Positions 2,222-17,339 are shown, counted from the first letter of the stretch. The stretch: DNA of 64,000 nt from Cognaticolwellia sp. (GCA_049614565.1 JBMZDW010000001.1:97249-161248), one strand, 5' to 3'. Translations and numbers: made by a program. Notes: generated from the sequence alone by a model not told the origin.

Positions 2222-3361
2222 ATGGCGTTATCAACACTTGAAAAACAAACATATATCAAAGATCGTTCCGCACATGATCTGTATTTAAGAGCGCGTATTG
2301 GGCCAGTTTTTTATATTTTAGGTATTCTTGTCACTGCATTAAACAACCAAATGTACCAAAATTTTTTGCCTCACGTTATTGCGATGTTAGTTACTTTTAC
2401 GGTCATCGCTTTGATACGTTTTTCGCAAGAAATGCCGCCCAAAAATCAACAGTCTTTGATAGTTTGGCGTCGGCAAACGTTAGCAATAACCTATTTATCT
2501 TGTTGGGCATGGGGCTTGTGTTTATCGTGGATGTTTCTACACCCCGAGTTAGATAACGCCCTGCAAACCATGCTAGTATGCACATTTGCTTATAGCACAG
2601 CTACCGCACATCAATTTTGTATTGAGCGTATACATGGTAAATTGGCAAGCATTATATTTTTTCTACCGGCGTTATTTACTATCCTTGCCTTTCGTCCCGA
2701 CAAAGTAACGCTCGTTTACGTTATCTCAATTTACAGTATATATTTAGTACTAACAGGGGTTCGAGGTAACAGAGAATATGTTTCGGCGTTGAATACGGAA
2801 ATTGGCCTGTTGGAGGCTCAGCAAAACCTAAAAGATTTATCACTTACCGATGAATTAACCAGCTTAGCGAATCGTCGACATTACCGAACATTTTTGGAGC
2901 AAGCTTTTTCCGCCGCTAAAAATAAAGAGCATAGCTTATTTGTCATTTTGTTAGATTTAGATTTTTTCAAAAAAATAAACGATAACTATGGGCACTTAGT
3001 GGGTGACATTTGCTTGCAAAAAACCGCTGAAATTCTGACTAAACATTTTAAACGCGATGAAGATCTTGTCGCTCGCATCGGTGGTGAAGAGTTTGCTGTC
3101 ATTATTACAGACACCTCCTTTGATCATGCTTTAGCATTAACAGAAGCAGCACACGCCCAGATTGCCAGTACACAAATATCAAGCGGTGATATAACCATAC
3201 GTTTTACCGCTAGCTTTGGCATATCGCAATATACTGAGGCATTAGATCATCAGCCAAATGACATGGTTAAACGAGCCGATGAGCTATTATTTTCCGCAAA
3301 AAATAGCGGCCGAAATAGAATTAAATATTTAGCTCAAAAGAACGAAAAAAGAACGGGATAA
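2222..3361 (+). CDS. Membrane-anchored diguanylate cyclase (GGDEF)
   Basis: N-terminal TM helices, DELTSLANRR, DLDFFKKIND, RDED I-site followed by ARIGGEEF. Confidence 0.92.
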   Translation: MALSTLEKQTYIKDRSAHDLYLRARIGPVFYILGILVTALNNQMYQNFLPHVIAMLVTFTVIALIRFSQEMPPKNQQSLIVWRRQTLAITYLSCWAWGLCLSWMFLHPELDNALQTMLVCTFAYSTATAHQFCIERIHGKLASIIFFLPALFTILAFRPDKVTLVYVISIYSIYLVLTGVRGNREYVSALNTEIGLLEAQQNLKDLSLTDELTSLANRRHYRTFLEQAFSAAKNKEHSLFVILLDLDFFKKINDNYGHLVGDICLQKTAEILTKHFKRDEDLVARIGGEEFAVIITDTSFDHALALTEAAHAQIASTQISSGDITIRFTASFGISQYTEALDHQPNDMVKRADELLFSAKNSGRNRIKYLAQKNEKRTG

Positions 3362-3365
3362 TAAA

Positions 3366-4118
3366 ATGGATTTATTTTTATTAAAAAAATTTATTGGCAT
3401 CATGTTAATGCCTCTAAACATAGTGTTAATGCTCATGTTTATCGCCATTTTATTTTACCGGATAAAGCCTAAGCTCAGTTATTCGGCATTGATTTCGGCG
3501 AGCGTTTTATTATTTCTTAGCACCTTTTCGCCGTTTTCAGATACCATCATTGCACCGTTAGAAGATAATTACCCGGCTTTCACGCGCAGCAGCCAGCCTG
3601 TCGATTATATTATTGTTTTAGGCTGTGCTCACACTACCGATCATAGTTTACCGGCAACCAGCCATCTCAAATATTGTTCGCTAGCACGGTTAGTTGAGGC
3701 GGTTCGTATATATCGACTGCACCCAGAAGCGCAAATAATCACCTCTGGGTATGCCGACAGCAATGAAATTTCAAATGCCGAAACGGTAAAAAAAGCGGCG
3801 GTATCCTTAGGTGTACCGGCGGAAAAAATATTAACCGAAAATTTCCCGAAAGACACCGAAGAAGAAGCAGAGCTTATCGCGCCACGCGTACTCAATAAGC
3901 GTGTGGTATTGGTAAGTAATAGAAATCATTTACCTCGTGCCATGGCCTATTTTTCTCAAAATGGCATTGATGCTATACCCGCCCCAGCTGGCCCACGGGT
4001 AAATCAACAAGTGCATAACGCTTGGGACTATTACCTCCCCCATGCCAGTAATCTACAACAAACTAGCATGGCCTGGTACGAAACGCTGGGCCGAATCGTA
4101 CAATGGCTAAAAAGTTAG
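3366..4118 (+). CDS. elyC: ElyC/YdcF (DUF218) family envelope biogenesis protein
   Basis: Two N-terminal TM segments, IIVLG, RLVEAVRIY, DTEEEA, HLPRAM motifs. Confidence 0.8.
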   Translation: MDLFLLKKFIGIMLMPLNIVLMLMFIAILFYRIKPKLSYSALISASVLLFLSTFSPFSDTIIAPLEDNYPAFTRSSQPVDYIIVLGCAHTTDHSLPATSHLKYCSLARLVEAVRIYRLHPEAQIITSGYADSNEISNAETVKKAAVSLGVPAEKILTENFPKDTEEEAELIAPRVLNKRVVLVSNRNHLPRAMAYFSQNGIDAIPAPAGPRVNQQVHNAWDYYLPHASNLQQTSMAWYETLGRIVQWLKS

Positions 4119-4145
4119 TCATTTTATTCAATGGCTGAATAGCAC

Positions 4146-4904
4146 TTATGCCGGATTATCGATATCAATAAACTTAGCAGTTACCTCTAAGTGCTGATTA
4201 AAGTGTGCCGCTAACGCTTTAGCGCCGTAGCGCTCGGTGGCATGATGGCCCGCACAGTAAAAATGAATATCCATTTCACGAGCAATATGAGTAGTTTGCT
4301 CAGAAACTTCACCACTGATAAACGCGTCTATGCCCTGCTCTGCCGCTAATTCAATATAACCTTGACCACCACCACTACACCAAGCCACCGTTTTAATGGT
4401 TTTATTCGAAGGAGCAGCTATATGTAAACAATTACGGTTTAGTTGCTCACTGATGCGTTGTTCCAGTGCTTGCGCTGAAAGTGGTGTATCAAACTCCCCG
4501 CGTACTGCGACACTTAAGGCATTGCCAATTTCCAACGGTGCAACATTATTGATAGAAAATAATTGGGCTAACTGGGCGTTGTTACCGAGTGTCGGGTGAA
4601 TATCTAGCGGTAAATGATATGCAAATAGGCTAATGTCATTTTCAAGTAAGGCTTTAATACGTTTATGTTTCATTCCGCGAATCACATAACTTTCATTTTT
4701 CCAAAAAAAGCCATGGTGCACCACTAAGGCATCGGCTTTTTCCTCGATCGCTTGTTCAATTAGCGCTTGCGTTGCTGTCACACCGGTAATCACTTTGCTA
4801 ATGTTTTCTCGCCCTTGAATTTGTAAGCCATTGGGGCAAAAGTCTTTGATCTGTTCTGGCTGGAGTAAAGCGTTTAAATAGTTTTCAAATTCAGAGCGTT
4901 GCAT
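4146..4904 (-). CDS. Nif3-like dinuclear metal center protein (YbgI family)
   Basis: DFCPNGLQ, VHHG, YHLPLD, GHHATE motifs. Confidence 0.92.
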   Translation of the reverse strand: MQRSEFENYLNALLQPEQIKDFCPNGLQIQGRENISKVITGVTATQALIEQAIEEKADALVVHHGFFWKNESYVIRGMKHKRIKALLENDISLFAYHLPLDIHPTLGNNAQLAQLFSINNVAPLEIGNALSVAVRGEFDTPLSAQALEQRISEQLNRNCLHIAAPSNKTIKTVAWCSGGGQGYIELAAEQGIDAFISGEVSEQTTHIAREMDIHFYCAGHHATERYGAKALAAHFNQHLEVTAKFIDIDNPA

Positions 4905-4983
4905 AATAATTTTTGACCTTAAATATCGGGTTATATTTGAATAATTATAAATCGCCCAGTAATAACTATGGGCAATTAATGTA

Positions 4984-5727
4984 TTAATTTTTTCTTGATG
5001 AGTTCATCGTTGGCACTTTTACCGGTTCAAAACCCGGCCTTAATTGCCATTTTGCTTTAATGGGTGTTAGTGGTAATAGCCGCTTTTTCGCGACAATAAC
5101 ATACACCGAGCCAAAACTTGGGAAATAACGTGCGGCAATTTTACGCCATTGCTGACTGATCACACCTTGGGTAATTTTTCGAGACAGAGATGAATGTAAA
5201 AATCGCTGATCGAGTTGAATTTCATAGCCCATCAAATGCAGCCAATCTTTCACCCGCATCGGTGAAAACAGCCTTTCATTCCAAGGCATTTGCTTACGAC
5301 GATAGGGAATAAATTTATTTAAACCGACAAAACTAAAGGGATTAAAGCCTGTGATCACTAAATAACCGTTGGGTATTAATACGCGGTTAGCCTCACGCAC
5401 CACGTGATGGGGATCTAAGGCAAATTCTAAAGCGTGAGCCAATACACAAACGTCGACACTGTGCTCCAATAAAGGTAAGTCATCAATGTCGGCAATCACA
5501 TCAGCGGTTTCACCCTGTTGCGATAAGCTTAACTGATGCTTTATCGGGCTATGGTCACTATCAATTTCAGCACTTAGTGCACCAATTTTCATCAGATGAT
5601 AACCAAAAAATTTCGGCCACCACGAAGCTAAGGTTTGATTAATATTGGCAAGAATAAGCTCACCATTGGGTAAGTGCTGCCAAGACTTTGGCTGATCAGG
5701 GTGCCTAAACGAAAGTGCGGGCTTCAT
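4984..5727 (-). CDS. Class I SAM-dependent methyltransferase (YafS-like)
   Basis: FGYHLMKIG, HALEF, GFNP motifs; divergent from gloB as in yafS-gloB-mltD synteny. Confidence 0.85.
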   Translation of the reverse strand: MKPALSFRHPDQPKSWQHLPNGELILANINQTLASWWPKFFGYHLMKIGALSAEIDSDHSPIKHQLSLSQQGETADVIADIDDLPLLEHSVDVCVLAHALEFALDPHHVVREANRVLIPNGYLVITGFNPFSFVGLNKFIPYRRKQMPWNERLFSPMRVKDWLHLMGYEIQLDQRFLHSSLSRKITQGVISQQWRKIAARYFPSFGSVYVIVAKKRLLPLTPIKAKWQLRPGFEPVKVPTMNSSRKN

Positions 5728-9888: not shown

Positions 9889-11118
9889 CTAGGCCACATC
9901 TTTTTTCTCAGATCCCACACCAAACTTCGATTGCTCAAAGACTTTCGTTTTAAAATTAGGTAATTTCTGCTGAGATTTGGGCAATGCCCTAGCAACTATC
10001 CCAGTCGCTATTAGATCTTTTTCACCTGTATTTGCCACTGATTTAGCTGCTGATAGATCTCTGCACTGCACTGCTCTACAACTTTCACAGGTGAATTCTC
10101 GCACACGTAAATCGAATTTATGTTCGTGCTGACACTCGTGACAAATGCCTGACGATTTCACAAATCGACCTATTTCATGGTACACAGCACCATTCAATTC
10201 CGCCTTATATTTGGTCAGATTTGTGATCATACCCATCACATTATCATTAACCATTTGGCCGTTAAATTGCTGCATACCTTTCACGTTTAAATCCTCAAAC
10301 ACTATAATATCACTGGTCTTGGCTATCGAGCATGATCCTTCGTGAGCGAACGCTAAGCGTTCGCAAGAGATCTTTCCGTGAAGTTTATTTAAGCGTGCTT
10401 TGGTTTTTTGCCAGCGATTTGAACCTTTCTTTCGACGACTCAGCTGGACTTGAATTTGTTTTAATTTGACCGATGACTTTTTAAAGGCTTTTGGGGTTTT
10501 TACGTACCAACCGTTTGAGCCTACAACCGTGTGTTGACTGTTGATATTATAACCCACAAGCGTTGATAGCACTTGTTTTTCGCTCTTGCATTCGACCTCT
10601 TGAGTCAATGAGATATACCATTTTCCGTTGCGCATTTTCACTGTAGCAGTCTTGATTTTGCTGGCTAATTTACGATGCAATACAATCGGCACCTTACCGA
10701 TTTTAGGGATGCTAATTGCACCATTTTTAATGCGAATACAGTTGGAATTATTGACGCATCTAAAGCTATCATCGTGAAGCTTTTTCTGCTTGAAACTCAC
10801 CTTAAATGTCGGAAACTTTTGCAACCGACCTTTAGTGAATGAATTTTTTAGTGCTGTTTCAAGATCGCGAGCCACTTGTTTCGAGCCCGCTGAATCGAAA
10901 GCTTTGAGCCATGAGAATTCGTCGAACTTCTTCAAATCTCGTATCAATCTGCCCATTTCATTGTAAAAAAAGAATGATTTATCGTACCGATATCGACGCA
11001 TATTTTCAGATAACAACAAGTTCCACACGCCACGGGCGTATGAGCCAAACTCTACTAGTTTGATTTCCTGTTCTGTCGTCGGCTTTAGGCGAAAGTTGTA
11101 TCTGACCGTCTTTTTCAT
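9889..11118 (-). CDS. tnpB: TnpB RNA-guided endonuclease-family protein, RuvC-I Asp replaced by Asn
   Basis: N-terminal YNFRLKPT helix-turn-helix, FPTFK, VGYNIN (RuvC-I), IVFEDL (RuvC-II), CHEC/CESC zinc finger, RDLSAA (RuvC-III). Confidence 0.92.
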   Translation of the reverse strand: MKKTVRYNFRLKPTTEQEIKLVEFGSYARGVWNLLLSENMRRYRYDKSFFFYNEMGRLIRDLKKFDEFSWLKAFDSAGSKQVARDLETALKNSFTKGRLQKFPTFKVSFKQKKLHDDSFRCVNNSNCIRIKNGAISIPKIGKVPIVLHRKLASKIKTATVKMRNGKWYISLTQEVECKSEKQVLSTLVGYNINSQHTVVGSNGWYVKTPKAFKKSSVKLKQIQVQLSRRKKGSNRWQKTKARLNKLHGKISCERLAFAHEGSCSIAKTSDIIVFEDLNVKGMQQFNGQMVNDNVMGMITNLTKYKAELNGAVYHEIGRFVKSSGICHECQHEHKFDLRVREFTCESCRAVQCRDLSAAKSVANTGEKDLIATGIVARALPKSQQKLPNFKTKVFEQSKFGVGSEKKDVA

Positions 11119-16847: not shown

Positions 16848-16883
16848 AAAAAAAGGCTGGTCAACGAAAAAACTTAACAGCCT
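16848..16883 (-). terminator. Stem-loop with U-tract between precursor and maturase (attenuator-like)
   Basis: Minus strand AGGCTG-TTAAGTTTTTTCGTTGAC-CAGCCT followed by T6. Confidence 0.6.
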
Positions 16884-16907
16884 CTTTATTGTTACTATGG
16901 GTACTGC

Positions 16908-17045
16908 TTAGCGACGCATCGCCGGGCCCCAGCTTGTTTGCACATCACCAGTCTTAATTGATAGTTTAGCTACACCGCTTTTCTTTTTGCGTAATTCAGC
17001 AGAAATTTTCTTAAGACGTGCATTGAGATTATTATTGGCTTTCAT
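16908..17045 (-). CDS. Putative RiPP precursor peptide, 45 aa (MKANNNLNARLKKISAELRKKKSGVAKLSIKTGDVQTSWGPAMRR)
   Basis: Translated by hand: ATG at 17045, TAA at 16908-16910, AAGGA RBS upstream, 88 nt upstream of and co-oriented with the rSAM gene; single Trp near the C-terminus. Confidence 0.8.
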   Translation of the reverse strand: MKANNNLNARLKKISAELRKKKSGVAKLSIKTGDVQTSWGPAMRR

Positions 17046-17339
17046 TTGATTTTCCTTTCAAGTTAACAACGTTTTTCATTACACGAGAAACTAAAGTTGA
17101 TTAAAACTCACTCAATTTAATAATAGATACAAATTTAATAACTGCAACACAATTGATAGAAATATATTCCATTATTCTTCAGACACATCTATCAGGCATC
17201 TTTGTAATTTGTTAACCAAATATTCAGATCTAATTTTTTGATAAGTGGCACTTGATTCTTATTAATGATAATAATTAGCATAGAACTAATATTCAAAACT
17301 ATAAGTCCTTAATTGATATTTACCCAACTGGAGTCAAGA

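Follow-up and report, generated by a model that had tools for sequence, protein, structure and literature searches.

A 45-residue peptide with an SWGPAMRR tail as the probable substrate of an adjacent radical SAM enzyme in Cognaticolwellia sp.

Described systems and the layout of the locus

The closest described counterparts of the locus reported here are the GrrA/OscA-GrrM/OscB triceptide systems, in which a small precursor is encoded directly upstream of an anSME-like radical SAM (rSAM) enzyme that ends in a short SPASM-type region and lacks a separate RRE domain. Our locus shares this gene order and enzyme architecture, places its aromatic residue in the same aromatic-X-X context and, in some members of the family, has a helical leader in which a comparable [D/E]R[L/I]xx[I/V]-like element can be read by eye. 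Unlike GrrA/OscA, whose cores are Gly-rich or repeat aromatic-X-X motifs (usually X-Asn), the peptide has a single WG[P/S] core at its extreme C-terminus and no repeats, and the third position of the putative ring is Pro or Ser rather than the Asn, Lys or Arg of triceptides; we know of no triceptide ring reported with Pro in third place. Classic triceptide clusters also lack the constant complement of five tailoring genes that accompanies the peptide.

Two other groups of systems offer parallels. As for darobactin/DarE, dynobactin/DynA, WprB and streptide, the core is short and contains a Trp on which a lone rSAM enzyme would be expected to build the cross-link, but the core sequence differs and the DynA and DarE models match the enzyme (E values of 4e-41 and 1.4e-26) with much lower scores than the GrrM/OscB model. 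Moreover, the SWGPAMRR cluster carries heavy enzymatic tailoring, of which we know no example in darobactin-type clusters. As in mycofactocin (MftA/MftC/MftG) and PQQ (PqqA/PqqE) biosynthesis, the functional part of a very small precursor is its invariant C-terminal end, and an rSAM/SPASM enzyme and a GMC oxidoreductase accompany it; in contrast to these systems, which combine a cognate rSAM family with an RRE chaperone and a dedicated peptidase, the conserved genes include neither an MftB/PqqD-type chaperone nor an MftE-type peptidase. Finally, a neighboring gene product resembles the landornamide-type peptide arginases (OspR, FlmR, OhkR; PF12640), whose characterized members act on other precursor types (PMC12703449). 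In the literature searched, we found no report of a peptide arginase paired with a cyclophane-type rSAM enzyme.

The locus lies in a 64,000-nt stretch of Cognaticolwellia sp. DNA, hereafter the window, and its features are listed in Table 1. We estimate at about 88% the probability that the 45-aa peptide is a genuine precursor and the substrate of the adjacent rSAM enzyme. Its invariant SWGPAMRR tail is almost certainly modified by this enzyme and by the fixed set of tailoring enzymes, through chemistry that is predicted from sequence. The SWGPAMRR peptides apparently constitute an undescribed family of ribosomal peptide natural products: the precursor family and the tailoring set are new, and belong to an already known kind, the cyclophane-type rSAM RiPPs. 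Neither the SWG[P/S]AMR core nor the gene combination was found in the literature searched; since the key triceptide survey lies outside that literature, the enzyme clade may correspond to an unnamed cluster in published similarity networks.

Table 1. Features of the SWGPAMRR locus, with positions counted from the first letter of the window
Feature	Position	Strand	Remarks
TnpB	9889-11118		adjoins the cluster
2OG/Fe(II) oxygenase, 218 aa	12024..12680	plus	prolyl-4-hydroxylase-like fold; H130, D132, H196 invariant
PAPS-type sulfotransferase, 257 aa	12696..13469	plus	Pfam Sulfotransfer_1, E 2.1e-19; PDB relatives are cytosolic sulfotransferases
VOC/glyoxalase-fold protein, 159 aa	13709..14188	plus	in 13/19 loci
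Peptide-arginase relative, 330 aa	14632..15624	plus	convergent with the rSAM gene, 3' overlap of 26 nt
Radical SAM maturase, 406 aa	15599..16819	minus	CxxxCxxC at C21/C25/C28; short SPASM-like C-terminus with C344, C348, C354, C373
Stem-loop followed by U7	16848..16887	minus	-18.9 kcal/mol, z -2.35 (folding); between peptide stop and rSAM start
Precursor peptide gene	16908..17045	minus	ATG start, TAA stop, 45 aa: MKANNNLNARLKKISAELRKKKSGVAKLSIKTGDVQTSWGPAMRR
Core TSWGPAMRR, residues 37-45	16911-16937	minus	
Leader, about residues 1-36	16938-17045	minus	
Short blocks conserved between the window and L016	17046-17250	minus	GTGTTGCAG, TTAATTTGTAT, ATTGAG and the last 22 nt; rest drifted
Shine-Dalgarno AAGGA	17053..17057	minus	7 nt 5' of the precursor ATG
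GMC-family flavin oxidoreductase, 480 aa	17313..18755	plus	divergent from the precursor gene

The precursor gene and its family

An earlier note, made from the sequence of the window, had proposed a minus-strand ORF with an AAGGA ribosome-binding site, a Trp39 that is its only aromatic residue and a position directly upstream of the rSAM gene. The sequence bears out each of these points, with a spacer of 88 nt between the ORF and the rSAM gene downstream on the same strand. The description of the ORF as unannotated holds at most for the ORF track then used, as a public protein collection already includes the identical 45-aa sequence as a called gene, and records from Paracoccus, Oricola, Burkholderiales and Tsuneonella contain homologs under the label "hypothetical protein". 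The AT-rich DNA of the window (∼38% GC) contains dozens of ORFs of 30 to 60 aa, so that the size of this one does not set it apart from chance.

Comparison with related loci provides the stronger evidence. Loci anchored on the rSAM enzyme were collected from four Logan metagenome contigs (82% identity), one 3.3-Mb assembly (66%) and further genomes (42 to 56%), namely those of Marinobacter, Novosphingobium, an Acidobacteriaceae MAG, Oricola, a Burkholderiales MAG, two Paracoccus and a Rhodobacterales MAG. A small ORF ending in [S/A]WG[P/S][A/M]MR[R/V]-stop precedes the enzyme gene in 11/11 of these loci, and the C-terminal Trp motif is conserved; the lack of such an ORF would, by the earlier note, have refuted its reading. 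Conversely, an rSAM gene follows immediately in all eight loci anchored on the peptide. The pair is thus kept in 19/19 loci, and a small gene that stays next to its maturase across taxa is a general mark of RiPP precursors.

A homology search with the single peptide matched only the peptide itself, and we searched 5.8 billion proteins with a profile built from 12 locus-derived peptides, which yielded 69 distinct proteins of 41 to 73 aa. Together with four peptides read from the loci, they make a set of 73 in which the tail positions are occupied by S (64) or A (8), W (72), G (73), P (62) or S (11), A (72), M (73) and R (73), followed by a last residue that is R in 61-62 peptides, V in 10, or else K or I. 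From Gamma-, Alpha- and Betaproteobacteria to Acidobacteria, the C-terminal heptapeptide W-G-[P/S]-[A/M]-M-R-x stays practically unchanged, and the leaders are far more variable. One peptide (P0205) has Gly where the others have Trp. No NCBIfam or Pfam model matched the window peptide (E 0.01), and GrrA/OscA and other models of these collections gave no relevant match among 12 family peptides, even at an E value of 10.

The combination of a variable leader and a conserved core, another general mark of RiPP precursors, is accompanied here by purifying selection. Between the window precursor and that of its closest relative, L016, whose rSAM enzyme is 82% identical, dN/dS is 0.09 with a saturated dS of 1.77, and the core codons vary at synonymous third positions between loci. 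The comparative conservation, the synonymous variation and the low dN/dS therefore indicate a gene that is tied to the rSAM gene, is under strong purifying selection and, by this comparison of sequences, is most probably translated. The alternative that the small ORF is no substrate, being either a chance ORF or a cis-regulatory leader peptide whose hairpin acts as a translation-coupled attenuator of the rSAM operon, draws on the hairpin with a U-run 3' of the ORF and on the abundance of ORFs of similar size. However, a C-terminal heptapeptide that is identical in different phyla, with synonymous turnover of its codons and such a dN/dS, is not what an attenuator would show, and tandem precursor copies and a peptide with two cores are typical of RiPP precursors. 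We consider this alternative extremely improbable, and both of its versions are effectively excluded by the conservation data. The duplications are found in Oricola, where two tandem precursor genes (L024:3581-3930) encode the cores AWGPAMRV and AWGPAMRR, and in a metagenomic precursor (P0158) with two cores within one 73-aa peptide. A second copy of the core was not found in the window's own genome, where it is present once.

A purine-rich stretch of the GGAG/AGGA/GAGG type lies within ∼12 nt 5' of the ATG in nearly all 12 aligned loci, and the 22 nt preceding the ATG are identical between the window and L016, the remaining upstream region having drifted. The short blocks conserved further upstream (Table 1) may be promoter or operator elements; a consensus promoter scan did not flag them. 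The locus was found in a single DNA metagenome (seawater) in a search of sequencing runs, and in no RNA run. On the other side of the gene, the stem-loop that precedes the rSAM gene recurs at the same position, with unrelated sequence, in most related loci, and a stem-loop 3' of the precursor gene is a common arrangement in RiPP loci. A simple terminator scan did not flag the window's stem-loop. It is likely a partial terminator or transcript stabilizer that sets the precursor:enzyme ratio, and would keep the precursor mRNA in excess over that of the enzyme.

The earlier note compared the leader with the E-x-RL-x-R-I/L-x3-LRER motif of GrrA/OscA precursors. In the form RLxxIxxxLR, this motif is rare among the peptides of the family: the pattern RL..[IL]...LR occurs in 2/73 of them, those of the window and of its nearest relative, and the relaxed pattern R[LIV]..[LIVA] in 34/73. 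What the leaders have in common is an amphipathic helix followed by G-x-L: a hydrophobic residue at positions 7 (70/73) and 11 (73/73), an Ala-rich helix, then Gly (69/73), any residue and Leu (60/73), with G-x-L-x-x-[Y/H] in 58/73. By eye, [D/E]R[L/I]xx[I/V]R-like elements can be read in some members (NERINTVR and ADRIETVR in Oricola), and similar ones in the four classic precursors that we read (IERLSSIR, DERIRAL, SDRVEKVR). This reading by eye is consistent with a related leader recognition.

The family is scattered and rare. Its 73 distinct precursors, and the related enzymes, which form at least 120 clusters, come from metagenomes of seawater and other sources as well as from the genomes of several isolates and MAGs. 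The rSAM clade was present in 0/21 congeneric genomes and in 0/400 random genomes sampled across the phylum. This distribution bears on the proposal that the peptide is sacrificed as the scaffold of a small molecule or redox cofactor, made in the manner of mycofactocin or PQQ by rSAM cross-linking, GMC oxidation and excision. Like those of MftA and PqqA, the core occupies the very end of the peptide and does not change from phylum to phylum, in contrast to the drifting leaders; the last residue varies as if dispensable, the second-best NCBIfam match of the GMC enzyme is the mycofactocin dehydrogenase MftG, no dedicated protease is conserved among the co-occurring gene families, and no transporter lies in the window. 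Mycofactocin and PQQ are, however, unlike the present family in its patchy distribution on mobile elements. The clusters sit in mobile contexts, with TnpB in the window and integrase, T4SS or IS21 functions elsewhere, and this patchiness and mobility are better suited to a specialized metabolite than to a cofactor. Furthermore, no dependent dehydrogenases are linked to the clusters, the SbmA/BacA transporters, pentapeptide-repeat and VOC proteins of the family look like export and self-protection functions, and the clade relatives P0010, P0041 and P0115 score only 37.9 to 46.3 bits with the MftC model against a cut-off of 265. We therefore rate the scaffold proposal as improbable and retain the precursor of a modified peptide. 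The mobile contexts are consistent with horizontal spread of the cluster. In L020, an inserted IS21-type element (3080-5407) separates the GMC gene from the precursor, and other loci (L045:12626-14519; L047:5066-7195; L048:1-4503) contain either an integrase with RelE/HTH or a T4SS coupling protein with a relaxase.

The radical SAM clade and the predicted cross-link

The window enzyme has the features by which cyclophane-forming enzymes are recognized, a CxxxCxxC motif and a short SPASM-type set of cysteines. GrrM/OscB (TIGR04261) ranks first among the NCBIfam models, with 247.1 bits against a cut-off of 310, followed by AmcB (197 bits), so that the best models are those of cyclophane formers, and then by anSME, DynA, YhhB and DarE; the sequence relatives in the PDB are anSME and the triceptide synthase ChlB (9gm3, E 6e-18). 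The score is below every curated family cut-off, and the chemistry of the enzyme is for this reason an extrapolation. The shortfall is shared by the whole clade: enzymes of the SWGPAMRR clade reach 242 to 277 bits with TIGR04261, whereas those beside classic repeat precursors reach 360 to 555. In a maximum-likelihood tree, the enzymes associated with SWG[P/S]AMR peptides are monophyletic (100/100) and sister to classic GrrM/OscB. One monophyletic rSAM clade is always found directly downstream of SWG[P/S]AMR peptides, and these enzymes, immediately beyond the limits of the curated GrrM/OscB family, have a precursor type dedicated to them. Repeat cores (NFPNFPNFSNWRNR, FDNSFDNSF, WENWENWEN) occur only beside true GrrM/OscB enzymes, and the absence of a multi-motif core, which the earlier note had pointed out, is real: the family has a single C-terminal core around the only Trp. 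The "single ring" product put forward on that basis remains a prediction from sequence.

Eight cysteines (C21, C25, C28, C116, C344, C348, C354 and C373) are common to the new clade and to the classic enzymes. A ninth, Cys132 in the motif GVSCDGP, is specific to the SWGPAMRR clade, in which it is invariant, the classic GrrM/OscB enzymes having Leu or Met in its place; it may be an active-site thiol. We propose that the enzyme would dock on the amphipathic leader helix, abstract a hydrogen from a side chain of the core and form one C-C cross-link with the Trp39 indole. Bonding to the C-beta of residue 41 would be the most economical choice and would give a three-residue W-G-P/S cyclophane. By analogy with the known enzymes, and granted that the peptide is a precursor, we offer this ring as a tentative guess, with perhaps one chance in three.

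A different reaction on the same substrate has to be weighed against this ring. The enzyme could link Trp39 to Met43 or Arg44, build an ether or thioether bridge, or epimerize a residue with Cys132 as hydrogen donor, and G40, M43 and R44, whose invariance a simple W-x-x ring does not require, would suit a longer-range cross-link equally well. The clade-specific thiol and the score below the GrrM/OscB cut-off point the same way. Long links have precedents in WprB, which joins Trp-C5 to Arg-C-gamma, and in the Lys-Trp link of the streptide type. Trp-Arg cross-links made by rSAM enzymes are on record (PMC11851443). On the other hand, the nearest characterized relatives all make three-residue rings from an aromatic residue to a C-beta (PMC11499958), and position 41 is only ever Pro or Ser, each with a C-beta hydrogen. 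Taken jointly, these other reactions are a serious possibility that we place somewhat below even odds.

Tailoring genes and the switch at residue 41

The locus is made up of seven gene families that recur across phyla, in shuffled order and orientation. Besides the VOC protein (Table 1), the 19 loci contain the arginase-like gene in 16 cases, the GMC oxidoreductase in 15, the 2OG oxygenase in 11-12 and the sulfotransferase in 8. Sequence searches against the PDB gave no useful match for the arginase-like and 2OG-like proteins, and fold searches resolved both. The model of the 2OG oxygenase is of moderate confidence (pLDDT 69.7) and its fold matches P. putida P4H (4j25, E 4.9e-9) and PHD2. The GMC oxidoreductase and the VOC protein would contribute an oxidation or self-protection, and the VOC protein could be either an immunity protein or a tailoring enzyme.

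The AlphaFold2 model of the 330-aa protein (pLDDT 93.2) has the peptide arginase OspR as its sole PDB fold match below 1e-3 (8brp, E 2.5e-9, TM 0.51-0.55). Peptide arginases of PF12640 are defined by the motifs DxHxD, LDIDLDYF and EEH(N/H)EAF (PMC12703449). Equivalents of the first two are present, as D126-x-H128-x-D130 and H255-I-D257-L-D259-Y-F, corresponding to the DxHxD and (L/H)IDLDYF motifs of the landornamide-type enzymes, and five canonical metal ligands are kept; H124, D126, H128, D130, H255, D257 and D259 do not vary among 84 sequences. The protein nevertheless differs from peptide arginases in its ∼14% identity to them, in the replacement of the EEH-motif His by Ser (E99-D100-S101-W102), in two extra invariant histidines, H124 and H255, and in a PF12640 (UPF0489) score of 11.1 bits against a threshold of 27, the best family member reaching an E value of 0.0079. 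Because the EEH His is absent and the Pfam threshold is missed, its arginase activity is uncertain. From its modeled fold, the protein is best regarded as a diverged offshoot of the peptide-arginase fold. The precursor has an invariant Arg, as in peptide-arginase systems, and an arginase-like activity on Arg44 is plausible: the enzyme would convert this residue to ornithine or carry out a related hydrolysis.

The remaining accessory genes follow the identity of residue 41. Twelve loci, among them L016, L022, L024-L028 and L045-L048, have a Pro core, as does the window, and seven (L020, L021, L023, L041-L044) have a Ser core. The 2OG oxygenase is found in 11/12 Pro-core loci, with an edge fragment in the twelfth, and the sulfotransferase in 8/12; both are absent from the seven Ser-core loci. 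Conversely, a protein of ∼410 aa occurs in 6/7 Ser-core loci, and a pentapeptide-repeat protein, a DSP-phosphatase-like protein and an FkbM methyltransferase in 4/7 each, all four being absent from the 12 Pro-core loci. The ∼410-aa protein (L020:8898-10124, with homologs in L021 and L041-L044) has invariant CARGGL and VDTGVFGSI motifs, and no Pfam, NCBIfam or PDB sequence relative was found for it.

On the rSAM tree, the Pro/Ser label requires three to four changes, at least two of which are forced by well-supported branches, and the window and its closest relative, both of the Pro type, are nested within a Ser clade. The co-switching of the accessory genes is for these reasons not one inherited event, and it indicates residue 41 as the site that the accessory enzymes would serve. 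In Pro-type clusters, including that of the window, the 2OG oxygenase would hydroxylate Pro41 and the sulfotransferase would then presumably esterify a hydroxyl. A fused ATP-sulfurylase/APS-kinase, a source of PAPS, stands beside one Pro-type cluster (L046:4180-5955), which fits sulfation; it is absent from the window. The sulfotransferase is nevertheless missing from Ser-core loci although the Ser core already offers a hydroxyl, which argues against a simple logic of sulfating any hydroxyl at position 41 and is left unexplained by the reading of hydroxylation followed by sulfation.

The leader would presumably be removed by an unlinked protease, and the product would be exported by SbmA/BacA-type ABC transporters in the loci that encode one. 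Such transporters flank five clusters (L024, L025, L041:2574-4307, L046:6469-8247 and L048:6903-8693). A fuller proposal joins these elements into a new RiPP class with a programmable position 41. Its Trp link, as yet undescribed, would run to the C-beta of Pro or Ser or over a longer range to Met43 or Arg44, an arginase without one canonical His ligand would make ornithine of the invariant Arg, and position 41 would carry a hydroxyproline O-sulfate in Pro-type clusters and another decoration, made by the ∼410-aa enzyme, in Ser-type ones. We regard it as unlikely that all of these parts hold together; if they did, sulfated hydroxyproline would be a modification without precedent among ribosomal peptides of bacteria.

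The expected chemistry unites a radical Trp cross-link, arginine hydrolysis, prolyl hydroxylation and sulfation, which to our knowledge have not been described together. The Pro/Ser switch with its swapped accessory genes is an experiment set up by nature on the site of action of each enzyme, and the invariant heptapeptide is a ready-made minimal substrate for enzymology. An anonymous ORF of 45 codons thereby comes to define a family of biosynthetic clusters that are compact and occur widely but in scattered places, a lead for genome mining whose product is predicted.
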